Assembly: GCA_963808235.1 (NCBI GenBank)
Contig: CAWEEQ010000004.1
Span: 1,888,001 to 1,952,000, forward strand
From: an uncultured delta proteobacterium
GTDB lineage: Bacteria; Desulfobacterota; Binatia; Binatales; Binataceae
Direction: 5' to 3'
Length of the DNA: 64,000 bases
Shown: piece after piece, positions 1,529-59,813 of the stretch
Layout: each line of letters begins with the position of its first letter
How positions within the stretch are numbered: position 1 is the stretch's first letter
Notes under the pieces: model-generated
The model's database searches: none
Told to the model about the DNA's origin: nothing
The model's input: only the letters and a program-made list of their open reading frames with translations
Translations under genes and position numbers: made by a program

Positions 1529-2296
1529 CTAGTTGCTGTGGCCCGCCCCAACCTCCTCCAGCTTTTCCTCCGCACTCGCGTCGTCATGGCGTTCCTTGGT
1601 GATCGCCGCGAGAAAGATATCTTCCAGCGAAGTCCCGCCCGGGAGCTGCTTCAAGTATTCCTCGAGCACCACGTGGCCGTCGGCGATTATGACGACCTTG
1701 TCGCAGATCTGGGAAACCTCGGGCAGGATGTGCGTCGAGAGCACCACCGTCCGATTCCCCGACAACTGATGAATCAGTCCGCGAATCTCATGGATCTGGC
1801 GCGGATCGAGACCGATGGTCGGCTCGTCGAGCACCAGCACCGGTGGATCGTGAATCAATGCCTGCGCGAGGCCGACGCGCTGCCGGTAGCCCTTGGACAA
1901 CTGTCCGCAGATCCGATGCGACATGTCGGTCAGGCCGCAAACCTCCAGCACATGGTCGAGCGCCGACTGGATCTTCGCGCGCGGCACGTCGCGAAGTCTC
2001 GCGACGAACCGGAGATACGCTTCGACCCGCATATCGAGATAGAGCGGCGGGTTCTCGGGCAGGTATCCGATCTTGCGGCGCGCCTCGAGCGACTGCGAAA
2101 AGATATCGAGGCCGTCGATCAGCACGGTGCCCGCGGTCGCCGGCATGTAGCCGGTGATGATCCGCATCGTGGTGGTTTTTCCAGCGCCGTTGGGGCCCAG
2201 GAACCCCAGGATAGAACCGCTTTCGGCTTTGAACGATACGTCCCTGACCGCGACAAAATCGCCATAGGCTTTGGTTAGGTTTTTAACCTCGATCAT
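1529..2296 (-). CDS. ABC transporter ATP-binding protein (GldA-like)
   Basis: Walker A GPNGAGKTT, signature LSKGYRQR, Walker B VLVLDEPT. Confidence 0.95.
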   Translation of the reverse strand: MIEVKNLTKAYGDFVAVRDVSFKAESGSILGFLGPNGAGKTTTMRIITGYMPATAGTVLIDGLDIFSQSLEARRKIGYLPENPPLYLDMRVEAYLRFVARLRDVPRAKIQSALDHVLEVCGLTDMSHRICGQLSKGYRQRVGLAQALIHDPPVLVLDEPTIGLDPRQIHEIRGLIHQLSGNRTVVLSTHILPEVSQICDKVVIIADGHVVLEEYLKQLPGGTSLEDIFLAAITKERHDDASAEEKLEEVGAGHSN

Positions 2297-2466
2297 TCAG
2301 TTGGCCCAGTCACGGCGCACCGAAGAAAGCCGCCGATTCAATCCCAATGACGAAAAGTCATTCCTGGTAATTCAAACAGTCTCGGAGCAACCGACTAATT
2401 AATCACAGCGACTCAAACTGTCAATACGACGATTCGAACTGGCGGATAGTCTCCGATTCACATTCG

Positions 2467-2514
2467 CGATGCTTTTGCATTGAGAACCGTATCGGCTAGT
2501 TTCGGTTTATGGCC
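2467..2514 (+). repeat. 48-bp direct repeat, copy 1 (duplicate of polA promoter and start)
   Basis: cgatgcttttgcattgagaaccgtatcggctagtttcggtttatggcc; 47/48 identical to 3313-3360. Confidence 0.97.
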
Positions 2515-2617
2515 CTTGGCTGAGTCGCATTCGCTCTGAGCAGGCCGGCGCAGAGGCTTGGCAAGGATGTTCTACGGTGCAGCCATAAGCTGAGATGACG
2601 AAAAAAGGAATCCGATC

Positions 2618-3268
2618 GTGACCCAAGACCATCGCTGGTCAGCACTCGACGAGCCGTGGCAGATGGCACTGACACTGGCGTGGGAGGCGTATGTCGGGGG
2701 TAACGTGGGCGTGGGCGCGGCGCTTACCGATCCTCCCGGGCGAGTTGTTGCTGTCGGAAGAAATCGCGTTTCGGACAAAGAAGCCCCGGCAGGAAGGCTT
2801 CGATCGACGTACATCGCCCACGCCGAGCTCGACGTTTTGGGACAATTGACGCCGGGCGATTACAGGGACCACACACTCTGGACGACGCTCGAACCCTGCC
2901 CACTCTGCACCATGGCCATCCTGACGAGCAACGTCGGAAGCGTCACGTTCGCAGCAAAAGATCGTCTCTGGGACGGGATATCTCGGCTAACTGAACTCAA
3001 CGAATTCATCGCAAGCCGCTGGCCTGTTCGGCGTGGACCGCTCGGCGGCCCGGTTTCTGTATTTTCTGAATTGCTTCCCTTGCTTTGGTTTCTGGAGCAC
3101 AAGCCTGATGGAACCGTCGTCGAGAAGTACGAAACGCAACACCCGCGACTTCTGGCGCTCGCCAGGAGTCTAAGCGGCGATGCCCGATTCGCCGACCTGA
3201 AGGCCCACCCTGCAAATGTGGCGCTGAATCAACTCTGGGCTGATCTTGCAGCGATCGAAGACGAGTAA
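2618..3268 (+). CDS. Zn-dependent nucleoside deaminase (cytidine/TadA-like fold)
   Basis: HAE motif (IAHAELDVL) and PCxxC motif (TLEPCPLC). Confidence 0.9.
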   Translation: MTQDHRWSALDEPWQMALTLAWEAYVGGNVGVGAALTDPPGRVVAVGRNRVSDKEAPAGRLRSTYIAHAELDVLGQLTPGDYRDHTLWTTLEPCPLCTMAILTSNVGSVTFAAKDRLWDGISRLTELNEFIASRWPVRRGPLGGPVSVFSELLPLLWFLEHKPDGTVVEKYETQHPRLLALARSLSGDARFADLKAHPANVALNQLWADLAAIEDE

Positions 3269-3312
3269 TCGTCAGACGCATTTGGCTATGCGCCAAAGAG
3301 ATTCTTCTTCCT

Positions 3313-3360
3313 CGATGCTTTTGCTTTGAGAACCGTATCGGCTAGTTTCGGTTTATGGCC
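3313..3360 (+). repeat. 48-bp direct repeat, copy 2; includes putative polA promoter and ATGGCC
   Basis: cgatgcttttgctttgagaaccgtatcggctagtttcggtttatggcc; TTGCTT..16 nt..TAGTTT, then 6 nt to ATG at 3355. Confidence 0.95.
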
Positions 3361-5949
3361 GGTGAACGCAGGCAACTGATTCTCGTCGATGGTTCCGGGT
3401 ACGTCTTTCGCGCGTTTCACGCGTTGCCGCAGATGAACACTTCGCGGGGACTGCCGACCAACGCCACCTATGGATTCATCCGGATGCTACTGAAGCTGCT
3501 GAAGGACGCGCGGCCTACCCATATCGCGATTGTGTTCGACTCGCCGAAGAGAACTTTCCGCGACGACCTGTTCGAGGATTACAAAAAGAACCGCGTCGAG
3601 ACGCCGAACGATCTGCTGACGCAAATTCCGTATATCCATCGCGCCGTCGAAGTGTTTCGTATCAAGAGCATCGTGCATGAGGGCGTCGAAGCCGACGACG
3701 TGATCGGCACGCTCGCGAGGCGCGCGGCGCAGGAGCACTTCACCGTTACGATTGTCACCTCGGACAAGGACTTCATGCAGCTCGTGGGTCCTCACGTGAC
3801 GCTGTGGGAAACGATGAACGATCGGCGGACTGGAGTCCGCGAGGTCAGAGAGCGCTTCGGTGTCGAGCCGCCGGCGCTGGTCGATATTCAGGCGCTCACT
3901 GGCGATACGATCGACAACGTAAAAGGAGTCCCGGGAGTCGGCGAGAAAACGGCGTCTGCGTTGGTCCAGAAGTTCGGCAGCGTCAAGGGGATTTACGAAA
4001 ACCTGGAGCGAATCGAGGAGACGGGAATTCGCGGCGCGAAAAGAGTTGCGGCGCTTCTGCAAGAGCATCGCGCGGGCGTGGACCTCGCGCGCAAACTGGT
4101 TCGCATCGATACCGACGTGGCGCTCAGCGTCGCACCCCACGAATTCGCATGGGTGGGCGTCGACGAGAAGGCCGCCGCGGAATTGCTACGCGAGCTGGAA
4201 TTTCACTCGATCATCCGCGAAATCTCGCCTTCGCAGGTCGAGCTCCCGGGCCTCGAATCGGCCCGCGCGCCAGCCGCCGCGGTGGCGGGGGAAAGTCTGA
4301 TCGACGCACTCAAGCAGCTTAAAGGAGCGCCGCGAATCGCACTCGATCTCAGCAAGACGGCCGACGGAGTCGAGCAGCTGCAATTGGCCGGTGCGGAAGA
4401 GTCATTCGTCGTCGATGCGGAAAGTATAGCGAGCACGAAGGCTTTGCTCGAATCGGCCGAGCCGCCCAAATCATGCCACGATTTGAAAACTCATCTTGGC
4501 GCGTTCACTCGGCATGGAATCACTCTCAGGGGCGTGGATTTCGACACGATGCTGGCCGGCTTCCTGGTCAACTCGGGACAGGACGAGCCGACTTTGATCG
4601 ACTTGTACCACGAGTACCTGGCCCCGCTCGGCCGCGACGTTCCGCCCGGCTCGAACGCGCAATTGGTGACCCGCCTGCACGAGGCGTTGAGCGCGCGGCT
4701 TCAGGCCGACGGTCTTCGCCCGTTGTTCGATGACATCGAGATGCCGGTGGCGTCGATCTTGGCGGAGATGGAGGCCATCGGGATCAATATCGACGGCGAG
4801 GCGCTGAAGACCATCTCGAAGGAATTCGCCGAACAGATGAGCGGGCTCGAACGCGAATGCTACCAGCTCGCGGGCCGCGAATTCAATCTGAATTCGCCCA
4901 ATCAACTGCGCGAGGTGCTGTTCAACGACCTCAAGCTTACGTCGAAGGGCCTCAAGAAAACCAAGAGCGGATTCTCGACCGATGCCGACACGCTCGAAAA
5001 GCTCGCAGCGGTGCATCCGCTGCCGCGCAAGCTTATCGAGTACCGCACGATTTCCAAGCTCAAGTCGACGTACGCCGACTCGTTGTCTGAGGTGATTCAT
5101 TCGGGGACCGGCCGAATCCACACTACCTGGAACCAGGCCCAGGTTCCGACCGGGCGGGTCAGCTCCCACGATCCGAACCTGCAAAATATCCCGACCCGCA
5201 GCGAAGAGGGCCGCCGGATCCGGCGCGCGTTCATCCCCGCGGAGGGGAGCTTGTTCGTGTCGGCGGATTATTCGCAGATCGATCTTCGCGTGCTGGCTCA
5301 CCTGTCGGGCGACCAGACGCTCGTCGATGCGTTCAACCGCGGCGAGGATATCCACGTCCGGACCGCGACCGAGGTGCTCGGGATCACGGCTGACAAAGTC
5401 GACGCGGCCGGGCGGCGGCTCGCCAAGGTGATCAACTTCGGAATCATCTACGGGATGGGGCCGCAGCGACTGGCCGGGGAGCTCGGGATTGCGCTGACGG
5501 AGGCGTCGGACTACATCAAGCGCTACTTCCAACGTCTGCCCGGAGTGCGGGCCTGGCTGGACGAGACGGTCCGCAACGCGCGCGAGACCGGTTACGTAAC
5601 GACAATGTACGGGCGGCGCAGGTATCTGCCCGAACTTAACGCCCCACCCGGAGGAGCGCGGGCGCAGGCAGAGCGAATCGCCATCAACACCCCCATCCAG
5701 GGCACGGCGGCGGACCTGATAAAGCTCGCCATGATACGGCTTGACCGGGTGCTCCGCGGTCGAAAGCTCGAGGTGCGGATGATTTTGCAGGTACATGACG
5801 AACTTCTGCTGGAAGCGCGAAAAGACCAATGGAAAGAGGCCGGCGAATTTGCGAAACGCGAGATGGAGGGCGTCGCCGAGCTGAAGATTCCGCTCAAGGT
5901 GGAGCTGAAATCGGGGCCAAACTGGGCTGAGATGAGCCCCGCGGCATGA
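3355..5949 (+). CDS. polA: DNA polymerase I
   Basis: 5'-3' exo LVDGSGYVFRAFHA; motif A ADYSQIDLRVLAHLSGD, motif B RRLAKVINFGIIYG, motif C QVHDEL. Confidence 0.98.
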   Translation: MAGERRQLILVDGSGYVFRAFHALPQMNTSRGLPTNATYGFIRMLLKLLKDARPTHIAIVFDSPKRTFRDDLFEDYKKNRVETPNDLLTQIPYIHRAVEVFRIKSIVHEGVEADDVIGTLARRAAQEHFTVTIVTSDKDFMQLVGPHVTLWETMNDRRTGVREVRERFGVEPPALVDIQALTGDTIDNVKGVPGVGEKTASALVQKFGSVKGIYENLERIEETGIRGAKRVAALLQEHRAGVDLARKLVRIDTDVALSVAPHEFAWVGVDEKAAAELLRELEFHSIIREISPSQVELPGLESARAPAAAVAGESLIDALKQLKGAPRIALDLSKTADGVEQLQLAGAEESFVVDAESIASTKALLESAEPPKSCHDLKTHLGAFTRHGITLRGVDFDTMLAGFLVNSGQDEPTLIDLYHEYLAPLGRDVPPGSNAQLVTRLHEALSARLQADGLRPLFDDIEMPVASILAEMEAIGINIDGEALKTISKEFAEQMSGLERECYQLAGREFNLNSPNQLREVLFNDLKLTSKGLKKTKSGFSTDADTLEKLAAVHPLPRKLIEYRTISKLKSTYADSLSEVIHSGTGRIHTTWNQAQVPTGRVSSHDPNLQNIPTRSEEGRRIRRAFIPAEGSLFVSADYSQIDLRVLAHLSGDQTLVDAFNRGEDIHVRTATEVLGITADKVDAAGRRLAKVINFGIIYGMGPQRLAGELGIALTEASDYIKRYFQRLPGVRAWLDETVRNARETGYVTTMYGRRRYLPELNAPPGGARAQAERIAINTPIQGTAADLIKLAMIRLDRVLRGRKLEVRMILQVHDELLLEARKDQWKEAGEFAKREMEGVAELKIPLKVELKSGPNWAEMSPAA

Positions 5950-5992: not shown

Positions 5993-6571
5993 TTGAGAAC
6001 GCCAGGCCGTCAGGACGGCGATGAAGCCGAACTAATCGAGCGGTCGCGCAAGGGCGATGCCGAGGCGTTCGGCGTTCTGGTCGAACGTTACCAGCGCCGG
6101 GTAATCGGAGTAGCACTTGCGGTCGTACACAACCAGGATGACGCCGTCGAGCTCGCACAAGAGACCTTCATTCGGGCGTACGAGAACCTCGGCAAGTTCG
6201 AATCGCGTTCCAGCTTTTCGACGTGGCTCTACCGAATCGCAGCAAACCTCGCGATCGATTTCTGGCGTCGCGAAGGCCGCCACGTGGTCTTGCACGGAGA
6301 AGATGCCGAGAGCGAAATCAGTAGATTGCCAACCACGCATGGAGACTCATTCAAGGAAGTCAGCCGCAGTCAACTCTCCGAGCGACTGAAGAAAGCGCTG
6401 GAGGAGTTGACGCCGGAACATCGCGCAGTGATACTTTTACGCGAAGTCGAAGGAATGTCTTACGACGAGATTAGTGAAGTTCTACAGTGTCCAAGAGGCA
6501 CGGTAATGAGCAGGTTGCACTATGCTCGCACCCACCTGCGGACCATCTTGAAGGACCTGGCCGGGAGTTGA
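5993..6571 (+). CDS. ECF RNA polymerase sigma factor (RpoE-like)
   Basis: Region 2 DAVELAQETFIRAY..FSTWLYRIAAN; region 4 EGMSYDEISEVLQCPRGTVMSRLHYAR. Confidence 0.95.
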   Translation: MRTPGRQDGDEAELIERSRKGDAEAFGVLVERYQRRVIGVALAVVHNQDDAVELAQETFIRAYENLGKFESRSSFSTWLYRIAANLAIDFWRREGRHVVLHGEDAESEISRLPTTHGDSFKEVSRSQLSERLKKALEELTPEHRAVILLREVEGMSYDEISEVLQCPRGTVMSRLHYARTHLRTILKDLAGS

Positions 6572-6578
6572 TCGGGAT

Positions 6579-7130
6579 ATGGCTGAATGTAGTGAAATAG
6601 GCCTGATGCTCGGCGCGTTCGAGGACTCCGAACTCGAGCCGAACGAGATGCAGGAGGTCGCGTTCCATTTGGCGCGATGCGAGTCCTGCGCCGGCATCCT
6701 CTCCGACTACTCGACGGTCGGGCGAGAACTGAGATCGCTTGCCACGGTGCCCGCGGTGCCCGGCTTCGCGAATGCCGTACTCGCGCGTATCGATCGACTG
6801 CCGCAGCCATGGTTCAAGCGAATCGAGCGGTACTTCGGCCGCGGTACGGATTTCATCGGCTCAGGATTCGCGTGGGGCGGCGCGATCGCAGCAGTCGCCT
6901 TGCTGACCGCGATCATCCTCACTCCGTATGCAGAGCAGCTAGGTAATCGAGCCCCCGCAACCACTTTGGTCTCAACGCAGGTAGCAAGTGCGACACCGGA
7001 CGAGCCTGCGATGGCCGACAGCGATTCGCACGCGGACATCTCGCGACTCGAGTCCGGCAATTCCGCGGTGGCAGTATGGAGTGAGCCGCGCAAGGACACG
7101 ACGGTCATTTGGCTACCTGATCAGCCCTAG
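6579..7130 (+). CDS. Zinc-binding (ZAS, zf-HC2) membrane anti-sigma factor
   Basis: HLARCESC (Hx3Cx2C) motif, one TM helix, directly downstream of the ECF sigma. Confidence 0.88.
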   Translation: MAECSEIGLMLGAFEDSELEPNEMQEVAFHLARCESCAGILSDYSTVGRELRSLATVPAVPGFANAVLARIDRLPQPWFKRIERYFGRGTDFIGSGFAWGGAIAAVALLTAIILTPYAEQLGNRAPATTLVSTQVASATPDEPAMADSDSHADISRLESGNSAVAVWSEPRKDTTVIWLPDQP

Positions 7131-7826: not shown

Positions 7827-8687
7827 ATGAAGCTGATCCTCAGCCGCAAGGGATTCGACGCCACCCACGGCGGATGCCCGAGTCCGATTCTCGACGACAA
7901 CTTGCTTTGCTCGCTTCCGATTCCGGACGATCGATCGCCGACTGCTTATCGGGATATTTCATTCAACGGGTCAGGCGTTGCGGCGATAGTGGAGAGCCTC
8001 ACGCGCGGACGGATCGATGGCAGCGATGGCGCGCATCTCGATCCCGACTTGCGACGCGATGCGATTCGGCGGGCCAAGGATGGCTGCCGATCTTCGGCCA
8101 GGCGGGCGCCGCGCAGACGCATCTCGCACGGAATCGAGTGGGACCGGGCGACCTGTTTCTCTTCTTCGGATCGTTCCGCCGTGCGGAGAGAGACGGCGGA
8201 GCGCTTCGATTCGTTCGCGGAGCTCAGAACCTTCACGTGATTTTCGGATGGCTTCAGGTGGGAGAAGTGCGGGCAGTCGCCGATTCTCTCGCGAAAGAAA
8301 TGCCATGGACCCGGCGGCATCCACATCTGAGCGCGCCCGAACGTTTCAAGAACAACACGCTCTATCTCGCTAGCGAACGGTTGTCCTCGTGTAAGCTCGA
8401 TGCGTGCGGCGCCGGAATCTTCGAGCAGCTCCGGCCGGAGTTGACGCTCACCGCGACCGATCCGTACACCGGATGCTCGACGTGGAGGCTGCCACGATGG
8501 ATTCATCCCGGCGCGCAGCCCGCTCTCTTACCACGCCAAACTATCTCGATGGACTGCCTGCGAGACATCGGTTCGGCTGAAATCGGCATATCCGGGTCAG
8601 GAATTCGTGCTCGACCTCGATGAGTATCCGGAGGCATACGATTGGCTGCTGGGAATTTTCGCGCGGTCGGAAGCTGCGTGCGATTGA
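7827..8687 (+). pseudogene. Nmad3-like (nucleotide modification associated domain 3) gene with two frameshifts (pseudogene or assembly error)
   Basis: Frame 1 MKLILSRKGFD..GGCPSPI..LCSLPIPD..HLDPDL; shift near 8078 to WLPIFGQAGAAQTHL..GDLFLFFG..HVIFGWLQV..HPH; shift near 8510 to PLSYH...GQEFVL, TGA at 8685-8687. Family assignment from motif recall. Confidence 0.75.
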
Positions 8688-56095: not shown

Positions 56096-58854
56096 GCGTC
56101 GTAGCAGGCGCGAATCGCGCCGATCCTTCCGCGACTGCTCCCTCGGCGGTGCGCGGACACGACGCGCTGCTCGCGCAGTTCATGGCCAGCAAGAAGCCCG
56201 GCGTGGACGCGCGCGCCTACCTGGAGTCGGTTCGCGCGGAACTCGCAAAGCGTAATTTCGCGGGCGCGTCCGGAGGAGAGATCGTGGCCGCGATGACCGC
56301 GGCGATGGACGATCTTCTCCGCGCGCTGTTTCACTATGCGGATGCCGACCACGATCGGCGTTTTTCCAAGCTCAATCAGAAAATCACTGTCGTCGCGCGC
56401 GGCGGATACGGGCGCGGCGAACTGAACCCGCAATCCGACGTCGATCTGCTGTTCCTGCATGAATACAAACGCGGCCCATACGCAGAAATAGTCACCGAGA
56501 TTATGTTGCATGCGCTCTGGGACGCGGGACTCACGGTCGGACACGGCGTTCGCACCGCCAAGGAATGTGTGCGGCTCGCAAACGAAGACCTGAAGGAGAA
56601 GACCGCTATTCTCGACGCGCGCTATCTGTGCGGCGACGAGAAACTATACGCGGAACTCGACAAGCTTCTGATCGCCCAGGTCCTCAACCGCAACCAGGAT
56701 AGTTTCTTCAAGACCAAACTCGAGGAGAGCCGTAAACGCCACGCCCAGTATGGCGATTCGATCTATTTGCTCGAGCCGCAGATCAAGGAAGGCGAAGGCG
56801 GACTGCGCGATCTGCACACCGCGATGTGGCTCGCGAAAGTCAAGTATAAAGTTCATTCGCTCGAAGAACTGGTGCAGAAGGCGGTGATCACCGAGCTCGA
56901 GGCGGCCGAAGTGATCGAAGCGCGCGATTTTCTGTGGCGGGTGCGCAACTCACTGCACTTTCTGACCGGCCGCCACTTCGATCAGCTTACCTTCGAGATG
57001 CAGGAGCGAATCGAGCCGCTGCTCGGATTCCATCCCGGAGAGCATCCCGATGAAGGTCAGGCGGCAGGCTCCGCCCTGATGCGCTCGTACTATCAGCACG
57101 CTGCCACGATCCATCGCTTTGCCGAGGGCCTGATCGCACGCGTTACCGAGAGTAGTCCCGGCGGCAGATTTTTCCGCCGCAGTCCGACTCGCAAGATTCG
57201 GCCCGGCGTCGTCGTCCAGCAAAATCTCTTGAGCATCGCCGATCCCGATCTCTTCAAGGACGATCCCCTCAACATCATAACGATCTATGCGGATTGCCAG
57301 GCTCACGACGTCGGTCTATCGGGCAGCGCGTATCAAATGGTGCGCGATAACCTGGGGCTGATCGACGACAAGATGCGACGGGATCCGCGCGTCTCCGCGG
57401 CGCTGATGAAGATTCTTTCGGGGCGCCAGCGCGTCGCCGAGACGCTCGAGGCGATGCATCTGTCGGGGGTGCTTGGCGCGATCATCCCGGAGTTCGGCAA
57501 TCTCTACGCGCGCGTTCTGCACGACCTCTATCATATATACACCGTCGATCGGCATTCCCTGGTCGCCGTGCGCGAGCTCGAACGACTACGCAGTGGTGAG
57601 TTCAAGGATCCTACTCCGCTGCTCACCGAGGTCGCGCGCGAACTCGATCGCCTGCCGCTCGTGTTTCTCGCCCTGCTCCTCCACGACATCGGCAAGGGTC
57701 ACGGCCACGATCATCATGAGCGCGGAGCGAGCCTGACCACGGAAGTCTCGGCGCGGCTCGGCCTCGACAGCGAGGAAGTCGACCTCGTCGTATTCCTGGT
57801 GCGCAATCATCTGATGATGTCGCAGGTTGCGCAGAAGGGTGACCTCGACGATCGCACCACCGTCGCGGAATTTGCGCGCACGGTCGGTTCGATCGATCGG
57901 TTGAAAGCGCTGTACCTGCTCACTTACGCCGACATGCGCGCGGTTGCTCCGAAAGTCTACAACAACTGGCGCGACATGCTGCTGAGCGACTTGTACATGC
58001 GCGCGCTCAAGGTGCTGGAACAGGGCGATCGCGAGGCCGTCGATCCTGCGCGCCGGCTCGCGACGGTCAAGGACGGAGTTCGCGAAACCCTGCTCGCGGC
58101 GTCGGCGCCACATGCGGACGTCGCCGAATTTCTCGACGAGATGCCCGACCGCTATTTTTTCACGGTCCCGGAGGCCGACATCCCGCTACACTTCGACTTG
58201 ATGCGGCAGTTGACCGACCATCCGCTGGTCTGTCGCATCAGGCATTTTCCGGAGCTTGAGTTCAGCGAGTTCATCGTCGTGACGCGCGACCGGCCGGGGC
58301 TGTTCTCGATGATCGCGGGCGCGCTCACCGCCAACAATCTGAACATCCTCTCGGCGCGAATCACTACGCGCACCAATGGAATCGCGATGGACGTGTTCCG
58401 GGTTTCACATCTTGCGGGTGCCGGCTCGATGGCGATGGAAGACTCGCGATGGCTGCGCGTCGAGCGCGATCTGGAACGCGTCATCGTTGGCGAGCAGGAT
58501 ATCGCGGCGCTGGTCGCGACCGCGCAGCAGGTGCAGAGCGCCGGGCGCAAGTTCGTCCGCCACGTGCCGACCGAAGTGACCGTGGACAATCGCACCTCCG
58601 AGCAGTTCACGGTGATCGACGTGTTCACCCAGGACCGCGTCGGACTTCTATTTGCGATCACGCATACTCTCTTCAAACTCGGCCTGCGGATTCATCTCGC
58701 ACGCATCTCAACCAATGCCGATCAGGCGCTCGACGTTTTTTACGTTAGCGATCGCGCCGGTGGAAAAATCACCGACCTCGATCAGATGCGCGAGTTGCGC
58801 GCCGCGCTGCTGGAAAAAGCGGAACAGAATCCTGGCGCTGGGGCATCACCGTGA
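56092..58854 (+). CDS. glnD: PII uridylyltransferase/uridylyl-removing enzyme
   Basis: GGYGRGELNPQSDVDL, IKEGEGGLRDL, HIYTVDRH, LLHDIGKG, two ACT domains. Confidence 0.96.
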   Translation: MSVVAGANRADPSATAPSAVRGHDALLAQFMASKKPGVDARAYLESVRAELAKRNFAGASGGEIVAAMTAAMDDLLRALFHYADADHDRRFSKLNQKITVVARGGYGRGELNPQSDVDLLFLHEYKRGPYAEIVTEIMLHALWDAGLTVGHGVRTAKECVRLANEDLKEKTAILDARYLCGDEKLYAELDKLLIAQVLNRNQDSFFKTKLEESRKRHAQYGDSIYLLEPQIKEGEGGLRDLHTAMWLAKVKYKVHSLEELVQKAVITELEAAEVIEARDFLWRVRNSLHFLTGRHFDQLTFEMQERIEPLLGFHPGEHPDEGQAAGSALMRSYYQHAATIHRFAEGLIARVTESSPGGRFFRRSPTRKIRPGVVVQQNLLSIADPDLFKDDPLNIITIYADCQAHDVGLSGSAYQMVRDNLGLIDDKMRRDPRVSAALMKILSGRQRVAETLEAMHLSGVLGAIIPEFGNLYARVLHDLYHIYTVDRHSLVAVRELERLRSGEFKDPTPLLTEVARELDRLPLVFLALLLHDIGKGHGHDHHERGASLTTEVSARLGLDSEEVDLVVFLVRNHLMMSQVAQKGDLDDRTTVAEFARTVGSIDRLKALYLLTYADMRAVAPKVYNNWRDMLLSDLYMRALKVLEQGDREAVDPARRLATVKDGVRETLLAASAPHADVAEFLDEMPDRYFFTVPEADIPLHFDLMRQLTDHPLVCRIRHFPELEFSEFIVVTRDRPGLFSMIAGALTANNLNILSARITTRTNGIAMDVFRVSHLAGAGSMAMEDSRWLRVERDLERVIVGEQDIAALVATAQQVQSAGRKFVRHVPTEVTVDNRTSEQFTVIDVFTQDRVGLLFAITHTLFKLGLRIHLARISTNADQALDVFYVSDRAGGKITDLDQMRELRAALLEKAEQNPGAGASP

Positions 58855-59813
58855 GCGCGCCCGATTGGGACTCGCTGATCGATCGGCATCTGAGCCGCCA
58901 ATCGGTCGAACGCGGGCTCAGCCGCCATTCGATGGAAGCGTATGCGCACGACCTCGCGATTTTTCAATCGTGGTGCCGCGAGCGCAGTCTGGACCCTTCG
59001 GAACTCGACGCGAGCGCCCTGACCGCCTATCTCGAAGCGCTAGCGGATCGTGGATTGGCAGTTAGTTCGCAGCGCCGGCATCTCGCGAGTCTGCGCGGTC
59101 TCGCTCGCGAAATGGTCGACGAGAAGATAATCGAGCGCGATCCTGCGCCCGCCGTGAAGCTTCGGCCGCATCCGCGCAAACTGCCGCGCACCCTCTCGCG
59201 GATCGACGTTGAGAATCTCATCAACGCGATCAACGTCAAAGATCCTCGCGGTCTGCGCGACCGTGCGATGCTCGAACTGGCCTATGGTTGCGGGCTTCGC
59301 GTGTCGGAACTGGTCGGCCTGCAACTGCATCAGGTGAATCTCGACGCGGCGGTTGTGATCGTTCTCGGCAAGGGCGGCAAAGAACGAATGGTGCCGATGG
59401 GCGGCGCGTCGATTCGCACGCTGAAGGCGTGGCTCGAGCGACGCGACGAAATTTTAAATCCCGTCGGCGATAGTAAGCGCGCAAAGAAAAACATTCCGCG
59501 CCGAATTTCCGCCGTCTTCGTCACCCGCCTGGGGCGCGCGATGACCCGGCAGGGATTTTTCAAGGCGCTCAAGGGATGGGCGTCCGCCGATTCGCGCCTG
59601 TCGTGGATGAGTCCGCATACGCTGCGTCATTGCTTCGCGACCCATCTGCTCGAAGGCGGCGCCGATCTTCGTGCGGTGCAGGAGATGCTCGGTCATAGCG
59701 ACATCTCCACGACGCAAATCTACACCCATCTGTCGAAGAGCCATCTGCGCAAGGTGCATCGCACCTTTCATCCGCGCGCTACGCGCGCGAGTGCGGGCGA
59801 AGGTACGGACTGA
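58851..59813 (+). CDS. xerD: Tyrosine recombinase XerD
   Basis: LRDRAMLELAYGCGLRVSEL, GKGGKER, MTRQGF, SPHTLRHCFATHLL..DLRAVQEMLGHSDISTTQIY. Confidence 0.92.
   Translation: MSAPDWDSLIDRHLSRQSVERGLSRHSMEAYAHDLAIFQSWCRERSLDPSELDASALTAYLEALADRGLAVSSQRRHLASLRGLAREMVDEKIIERDPAPAVKLRPHPRKLPRTLSRIDVENLINAINVKDPRGLRDRAMLELAYGCGLRVSELVGLQLHQVNLDAAVVIVLGKGGKERMVPMGGASIRTLKAWLERRDEILNPVGDSKRAKKNIPRRISAVFVTRLGRAMTRQGFFKALKGWASADSRLSWMSPHTLRHCFATHLLEGGADLRAVQEMLGHSDISTTQIYTHLSKSHLRKVHRTFHPRATRASAGEGTD

Follow-up and report, generated by a model that had tools for sequence, protein, structure and literature searches.

A deaminase gene between two copies of the polA start region in a Candidatus Binatus-type chromosome suggests a duplicative insertion

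The DNA analyzed here is a 64-kb stretch of a bacterial contig (hereafter referred to as the window). Close to its left end lies polA, the gene for DNA polymerase I, and the start of polA is preceded by a short unit in which a single deaminase gene is enclosed by two copies of a 48-nt direct repeat (Table 1). On its left side, the unit is separated by an intergenic region from a gene for an ABC transporter ATPase. In an earlier note on this DNA (the original prediction), this neighbor was called gldA. The assignment to the ABC ATPases is borne out by PF00005, whereas GldA is an approximate name, the TIGR03522 score of 297 bits being lower than the cut-off of 402.6.

Otherwise, the window consists of ordinary chromosomal DNA, with trp genes, argS, recD2, glycine cleavage genes, mutS, glnD, a xerC/D-type gene, and scpA. 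The product of the xerC/D-type gene is the only recombinase in the window. The gene is located ~55 kb from the unit, between glnD and a gene for an M50 peptidase with scpA further downstream, and it most likely encodes the chromosomal dimer-resolution enzyme, unrelated to the insertion discussed below. Downstream of polA, the window carries an Nmad3 gene (PF18754) that is split over two frames. Compared with the intact ORF of 266 aa in the related locus L003 (11417-12217), its C-terminus shows a further shift, and among the 20 related loci (L001-L020, see below) an Nmad3 gene was found in L003 and L001 only. The window copy represents either a pseudogene or indel errors in the assembly.

Table 1. 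Coordinates of the features discussed in the text (window numbering).
Feature	Position	Strand	Description
GldA-like ABC transporter ATPase gene, left neighbor	1529-2296	-	PF00005, 1.6e-30; divergent from polA
Native divergent intergenic region, left flank of the insertion site	2297-2466	.	Alignable to L001 and L002 (empty sites) and, as far as ~2445, to L003
Two nearly invariant intergenic blocks	2386-2440		Probable promoter/operator of the ABC transporter operon
Repeat copy 1	2467-2514	+	polA upstream block (-35-like TTGCAT, -10-like TAGTTT) and ATGGCC; native upstream context; now faces the deaminase gene
Mini-ORF, M-A-L-G-stop	2509-2523	+	ATG GCC CTT GGC TGA; duplicated polA ATG GCC and the first 9 nt of the insert
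Insert	2515-3312	+	798 nt; leader, deaminase gene, and 44-nt tail; absent from 20 of 20 related loci
Deaminase leader	2524-2617	+	AGGA ribosome-binding site; homologous to upstream DNA of deaminase homologues
Deaminase gene	2618-3268	+	Zinc-dependent CDA-fold deaminase; GTG start, 216 aa; core at ~residues 14-115, helical C-terminal extension of ~100 aa
Tail	3269-3312	+	From the deaminase stop to repeat copy 2; no terminator
Repeat copy 2	3313-3360	+	polA upstream block (TTGCTT ... TAGTTT) and ATGGCC; drives or starts polA
polA (DNA polymerase I)	3355-5949	+	Intact, 864 aa; PF02739, PF01367, PF22619, PF00476
Nmad3 gene	7827-8623	+	Split over two frames, ORFs 7827-8240 and 7874-8623
XerC/D-type tyrosine recombinase gene	58851-59813	+	Between glnD and an M50 peptidase gene

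The two copies of the repeat start 846 nt apart and are identical at 47 of 48 positions, the sole mismatch being an A at 2479 versus a T at 3325. When up to three mismatches were allowed, these two copies were the only sites in the window, and no match to the repeat appeared in any of 100 dinucleotide shuffles. The edges of the repeat are sharp. Local alignment of the outer flanks gave scores that were reached or exceeded by 1787 of 2000 shuffles on the left and by 1555 of 2000 on the right, i.e., the outer flanks align no better than shuffled sequence, which rules out a repeat longer than 48 nt. Both the ATG of polA and the GCC that follows are part of copy 2, while in copy 1 the same two codons open a mini-ORF that ends 94 nt upstream of the deaminase start and probably is a by-product of the insertion.

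Much of this arrangement had already been described in the original prediction: a 48-bp repeat with one mismatch and an offset of 846, a single gene for an HAE/PCxxC deaminase between the copies, a second copy that starts polA and leaves it intact, a first copy that opens a four-codon mini-ORF, and a unit with neither an integrase nor a transposase. The recomputed coordinates and the 47/48 identity agree exactly; the deaminase ORF scores above the PF00383 cut-off, polA is full-length with its four Pfam domains, and Pfam scans find no integrase or transposase inside the unit. The distance from the mini-ORF to the deaminase, given earlier as ~100 nt, is the 94 nt stated above. The repeat and the enclosed deaminase gene are real.

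The deaminase scores 50.9 bits against PF00383 (cut-off 25), and in an alignment of 49 family members the residues H68-A69-E70 and P93-C94..C97 are invariant or nearly so. An AF2 model of the protein has a pLDDT of 96.3, and in a Foldseek search the nearest solved folds were TadA and yeast cytosine deaminase (probability 1.00, query TM-score ~0.54). These folds cover the deaminase core only, and the helical C-terminal ~100 residues are unmatched. The best match among PDB sequences is E. coli TadA (1z3a, 6.1e-09). Judged by its motifs and predicted fold, the protein is a catalytically complete enzyme resembling TadA and cytosine deaminase. Identity with the tRNA adenosine(34) deaminase TadA itself is rejected on the basis of the NCBIfam equivalog NF008113, which gives 37.2 bits against a cut-off of 150; the "TadA" labels carried by homologues in JGI data are automatic names, and ESM Atlas matches are generic "nucleoside deaminase" clusters only. 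The known defense deaminases are rejected as well, with scores far below the cut-offs: the anti-phage dCTP deaminase model NF041025 gives 19.8 bits against a cut-off of 400, and the PADLOC dCTPase model gives 20.7 bits across 21 residues. The suggestion in the original prediction that the deaminase might act in defense or mutation therefore finds no support in the PADLOC and NCBIfam scores.

In a 90%-clustered protein set, 212 homologues of the deaminase were found at E values up to 0.001, and a 50%-clustered library holds 62 relatives at 1e-30. The window's own entry (100%) apart, the 120 listed homologues are 54-89% identical to the deaminase, and those named by NCBI among them belong to Binataceae or Binatus, with one labeled "Deltaproteobacteria bacterium". 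No homologue was found in the phage search. On plasmids there are three, all distant (29-44% identity). The neighborhoods of two of these give no functional hint, and one of them is flanked by transposases on a Streptomyces megaplasmid. The phage and plasmid searches are uninformative about the origin of the deaminase.

The DNA on either side of the deaminase gene within the insert belongs to it. Some homologues are annotated with longer N-termini, and their extensions translate DNA that is homologous to the leader. The N-terminal extension of homologue P0037 aligns to 2524-2607 (14 of 28 residues identical, E 1.7e-5 in a small database), and those of P0010 and P0061 give weaker matches. Since the leader is homologous to the upstream regions of homologues elsewhere, it arrived together with the deaminase. 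At the other end, a C-terminal extension of P0039 matches only the first 9 nt of the tail (3269-3277), and the tail does not resemble the left flank of copy 1. Comparison with these homologues indicates that the insert is a deaminase gene with its own native flanks, which start at most 9 nt after copy 1. In other respects, the region is inconspicuous. The best Rfam match in 2200-3500 is a chance match to a miRNA family (19 bits against a gathering score of 53), and the leader RNA is not unusually structured relative to shuffles (z +1.3). By blastn, the insert has no further copy elsewhere in the window or in the related loci, and no further deaminase gene was found in the window or the 80 polA loci described below. 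No GC anomaly was detected across the insert, and the GC3 of the deaminase gene (0.63 versus 0.78 for polA) lies inside the range of the window and is not diagnostic.

Species-representative genomes were scanned with the PolA N-terminus, which returned 80 loci; the comparison accordingly covers GTDB species representatives. The first 20 loci are from Candidatus Binatus or other Binataceae MAGs, with 60-84% identity in the best segment, and the remaining loci come from other phyla at ~40% identity. Over polA, the identity between the window and the 20 Binataceae loci is 62-89%. By these sequence relationships, the host is a Candidatus Binatus/Binataceae bacterium. The typical order in the 20 loci is a GldF-like permease gene, the GldA-like ABC ATPase gene on the minus strand, a gap, polA, and a gene for an ECF sigma factor. 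The ATPase gene adjoins polA in 19 of the 20 (the contig of L007 is too short to show it), and the ECF sigma gene follows polA in 17. With tblastn, the deaminase was found at none of the polA loci, i.e., 0 of 20 in Binataceae and 0 of 80 overall.

In the 19 loci with both flanking genes, the gap between the ATPase gene and polA measures 208-315 nt in 10, 426 nt in one, and 530-6287 nt in eight. The empty gaps of L001 and L002, each 225 nt long, are matched collinearly by the left flank and copy 1 of the window as far as ATGGCC; from CGATGC onward, these two empty sites are collinear with copy 2 and polA. Moreover, the 48-mer has a single match in each related locus, at polA only (41 of 48 positions identical in L001, 26 of 27 in L003), and in no case does one of the 20 relatives carry a second copy of its own polA block (best score at most 12, versus 45 in the window). 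Because both halves of the window locus align with the empty site, the ancestral state is one block, and the insertion in the window is derived. Alignment thus identifies a derived insertion 6 nt into polA, after codon 2, with a 48-nt target duplication. This outcome agrees with the insertion at the polA 5′ end and the duplicated upstream block and two codons of the original prediction, the empty sites in relatives matching both halves, and the single-copy empty site that was to be sought in relatives is found in L001 and L002, with short gaps in 10 of 19 loci. Different cargo between two copies of the repeat, which was to be looked for as well, was not encountered: a second polA block is present in 0 of the 20 relatives.

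The gap between the ATPase gene and polA has received other genes. Among the relatives with both flanking genes, eight of 19 have larger gaps, six of them with cargo that Pfam recognizes. Across the larger gaps of relatives, the cargo is DMT_6 (DUF486) in L003, MAPEG in L011, L018, and L007, a YhdP-like protein in L012, an acyl-CoA dehydrogenase together with TetR in L013, a Big_5/ice-binding-like protein in L016, and several genes in a 6.3-kb segment in L020; the 1077-nt gap of L019 has no ORF recognized by Pfam. A direct-repeat scan of nine larger-gap regions revealed a pair of polA blocks in none of them. On the evidence of these alignments, the gap is a gene-turnover spot in Binataceae. 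Of the loci compared, the window alone has polA cut into and the block duplicated. Two of the relatives deserve mention on their own account. In L003, the closest species representative, a 110-aa DMT_6 gene (6598-7006, minus strand; window 2445-2487 by alignment) takes the place of the -35-like half of the polA block and of ~20 nt ahead of it, and only the final 27 nt of the block are left (26 of 27 identical to the window). It represents a separate insertion event at almost the same position, and no duplication accompanies it. In L020, a 41-nt imperfect direct repeat (1196-1236 and 6317-6357, 78% identical, with a 12-nt exact seed) brackets ~5.1 kb of cargo. This repeat bears no relation to the polA block, and the ORFs scanned include none with a recombinase domain.

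The repeat coincides almost exactly with the conserved block upstream of polA, from -42 to +6 relative to the polA ATG. In an alignment of 18 sequences, the block is conserved across the family. Most of these sequences have a TA(G/C)(T/G)TT hexamer 6 nt upstream of the ATG, and the -35-like portion of the block is T-rich/CTTG. Neither a Shine-Dalgarno sequence nor another purine-rich ribosome-binding site was found ahead of polA in the window or at the aligned Binataceae polA starts. From the -10-like hexamer only 6 nt away from the ATG and the lack of a Shine-Dalgarno sequence, we infer that the block is a putative core promoter that would yield a leaderless polA mRNA. Leaderless polA is seemingly general in Binataceae, as the hexamer is found 6 nt before the ATG, with no Shine-Dalgarno sequence, in most of L001-L020. 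The original prediction that the repeat covers a putative -35/-10 pair together with ATGGCC is confirmed with respect to ATGGCC and the conserved block, whereas "promoter" is an interpretation of that block: a sigma-70 scan of 2200-3500, for which the consensus is that of E. coli, returned no site. Further upstream, two intergenic blocks are nearly invariant among the window, L001, L002, and L003, and one of them reads TTGACA on the minus strand. They probably constitute the promoter/operator of the ABC transporter operon, now also upstream of the deaminase.

On balance, we regard a one-off, non-site-specific duplicative insertion that has since been fixed, and not a mobile cassette, as the probable origin of the unit. 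In this model, a small clade of Candidatus Binatus would descend from an ancestor that acquired 798 nt of DNA 6 nt into its polA. The incoming piece would have been a deaminase gene of the Binataceae type, complete with leader, ribosome-binding site, and a short tail of its own. Immediately upstream of the insertion point lie the 48 nt that now flank the insert on both sides, and this duplication might have been produced by template switching, by fill-in at a staggered break, or by a single crossover with a circle on which the block was present. Insertion without duplication would presumably not have been viable, because it would have cut polA off from its promoter and start codon. The result would be two tandem units that share the core promoter, P1 and P2. 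P1, in its native upstream context, would be followed by the four-codon mini-ORF, the leader, and the deaminase gene, and P2, with only 42 nt of native upstream sequence, by polA. In other words, copy 1 retains the native upstream region and copy 2 is the block alone behind foreign sequence. Promoter capture by the deaminase is therefore plausible, with transcription likely to proceed from P1 in its native upstream context, and such transcription would probably place the deaminase under the same regulation as polA. A scan of 2200-3500 yielded no terminator-like site, so none lies between the deaminase and copy 2, and because no terminator separates the units the deaminase is probably co-expressed with polA. 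Neither duplicative insertion nor promoter duplication is new as a kind of event.

How the unit has been inherited can be approached through the contigs on which homologues of the two proteins are found, the size used being that of the longest contig of each homologue. The 120 listed deaminase homologues and the 120 listed PolA homologues have three contig sizes in common. On the 205416-nt contigs, deaminase P0008 (88% identity) is paired with PolA P0272 (92%); on those of 9940 nt, deaminase P0011 (88%) with PolA P0273 (91%); and on those of 11201 nt, deaminase P0012 (86%) with PolA P0285 (87%). All three pairs involve the closest relatives and have compatible sources, which suggests that the deaminase is linked to polA in three close relatives, the basis being equal contig sizes, not DNA. 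In a control, 120 PolA fragments compared with the deaminase list shared one value, 1034, from a contig too short for both proteins, and single matches of small contig sizes can therefore arise by chance. A PolA tree built from 34 of the 120 entries groups the window with P0272 and P0273 and places P0285 in a neighboring subclade; the PolA of L003 (P0276), with no deaminase at its locus, falls outside both. In a deaminase tree of 70 of the 120 entries, the window falls into a supported clade of 11 together with P0008 and P0011, and P0012 belongs to a different clade, which has four members. This phylogeny, which had been called for earlier, mirrors the PolA subclades.

The equal-size contigs, together with the matching subclades in both trees, suggest vertical inheritance, and the data are consistent with a single insertion in the common ancestor of a small clade and vertical transmission ever since. 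Should the insertion date back to that ancestor, with PolA identity going down to 87% within the clade, the 47/48 identity between the two copies would require purifying selection or gene conversion. Against this reading, the 18,440-nt contig of PolA P0274, the sister of the window's subclade, has no counterpart among the listed deaminases. Likewise, deaminases on large contigs (213897, 446798, 308530, and others) have no match among the listed PolA contigs, and Mb-scale Binatus contigs with PolA at ~80% have none among the listed deaminases. Since these large contigs are unmatched between the two lists, the deaminase is apparently located elsewhere or absent in other lineages.

The original prediction interpreted the unit as an attL/attR-type scar. 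For such a scar, an element would have used the polA promoter/start region as attB and later decayed to the deaminase gene, or an integrase-less cassette would have been moved in trans by a recombinase encoded elsewhere. The clean 48-nt duplication looks exactly like an att core, the near-identical direct repeats overlap and restore the end of a gene, and relatives have a single-copy empty site; the repeat length also fits att sites of ~40 nt as given in excerpts of bioRxiv 10.1101/2020.12.28.424599. Two hallmarks of a site-specific element are thus present, direct repeats that match the target site and the single-copy empty site. The other two, an adjoining recombinase and reuse of the att site by other cargo, are absent. 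Pfam scans that included 45 further ORFs detected neither a recombinase nor a transposase domain within the unit or beside it, and there are neither inverted-repeat arms nor terminal inverted repeats at the ends of the insert, nor an attC-like structure or palindrome in the tail. Other cargo in relatives lacks flanking polA blocks: the block is unrepeated in all nine larger-gap regions and all 20 loci, where the 48-mer occurs once, at polA only. In addition, there are no phage homologues and only three distant ones on plasmids, and the cargo is typical of Binataceae, with its own conserved leader, and has apparently co-diverged with polA by vertical descent in the closest relatives. These observations argue against the scar, which we consider unlikely. 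Two other vehicles were rejected as well: a transposon or insertion sequence, since there is no transposase domain and no inverted repeat at the insert ends, and an integron gene cassette, since the tail has no palindrome and an integron integrase is absent. The usual target duplications made by transposases are 2-15 nt long, and 48 nt is far longer.

Campbell-type integration offers a route that needs no recombinase. A circle, perhaps from a related strain, on which the deaminase gene and the 48-nt block were both present would by one homologous crossover yield exactly the observed order of block, insert, and block. The high conservation of the block between species (41/48 in L001, 26/27 in L003) and the Binataceae character of the deaminase gene speak for this possibility. 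However, it requires a donor in which the block was already beside the deaminase, and none was seen; moreover, 48 nt is about the lower limit for efficient RecA recombination. We look on this route, like the scar, as an unlikely one.

More ambitious readings of the 846-nt unit appear improbable. It could be a minimal integrase-less cassette that uses the leaderless polA promoter/start as its attachment site, is moved in trans among Binatus genomes, and always arrives with a ready-made housekeeping promoter, or the deaminase could have been recruited as a partner of DNA polymerase I, e.g., in base editing or nucleotide/DNA repair. An assembly artefact (a collapsed or looped repeat or a strain chimera) is very unlikely: the lineage is of the metagenome type and the frame breaks in the nearby Nmad3 gene are possibly sequencing indels, but one base differs between the copies, both junctions are collinear with relatives, the gene resides on a 3.85-Mb contig, and three other assemblies seem to have the deaminase and polA on one contig. 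That the deaminase is ancestral at the locus and was repeatedly lost in other Binataceae is also very unlikely, for while the gap is a turnover spot with varied cargo, where DMT_6 replaces part of the block in L003, the deaminase is found at 0 of 20 species loci, ten loci have clean short gaps with a single block, and the insert interrupts polA after codon 2, which is sensible only as an insertion.

Under the duplicative insertion that we favor, the locus is a clean natural example of how a housekeeping gene, probably a leaderless one, can survive the insertion of another gene right at its start. With the core promoter and start codon duplicated, the old gene and the newcomer each have a copy. 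The comparison also marks the ATPase-polA gap as a place of repeated gene turnover in Binataceae and provides a testable, putative 42-nt minimal promoter for an uncultured phylum. It reveals no new mobile element or defense system. Among papers on Binatia, a literature search found ecological ones only.

With regard to known systems, the deaminase shares the HAE and PCxxC zinc/catalytic motifs and the core fold with the clade of TadA, yeast cytosine deaminase, and guanine deaminase; it differs from TadA and yeast cytosine deaminase in the extra helical C-terminal half of ~100 aa, the query TM-score being only ~0.54. For the unit as a whole, one comparison is with tycheposons, where, in the excerpted text of bioRxiv 10.1101/2020.12.28.424599, att sites are typically ~40 nt and flank the integrated elements on both sides. 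Going by those excerpts, the polA unit shares with tycheposons and tyrosine-recombinase islands the direct repeats of ~40-50 nt, one of which restores the target gene, and the single-copy empty site in relatives. In contrast to tycheposons as portrayed there, it has no integrase, its target is not a tRNA gene, the site does not recur with other cargo, and the cargo is a single lineage-typical gene that is apparently inherited vertically. Templated or duplicative insertions that arise by template switching or break repair are another comparison, described mostly in eukaryotic genomes according to excerpts of PMC5120786 and other reports. They have in common with the polA unit that DNA is copied from elsewhere, that the target is duplicated at both junctions, and that genes of mobile elements are lacking.
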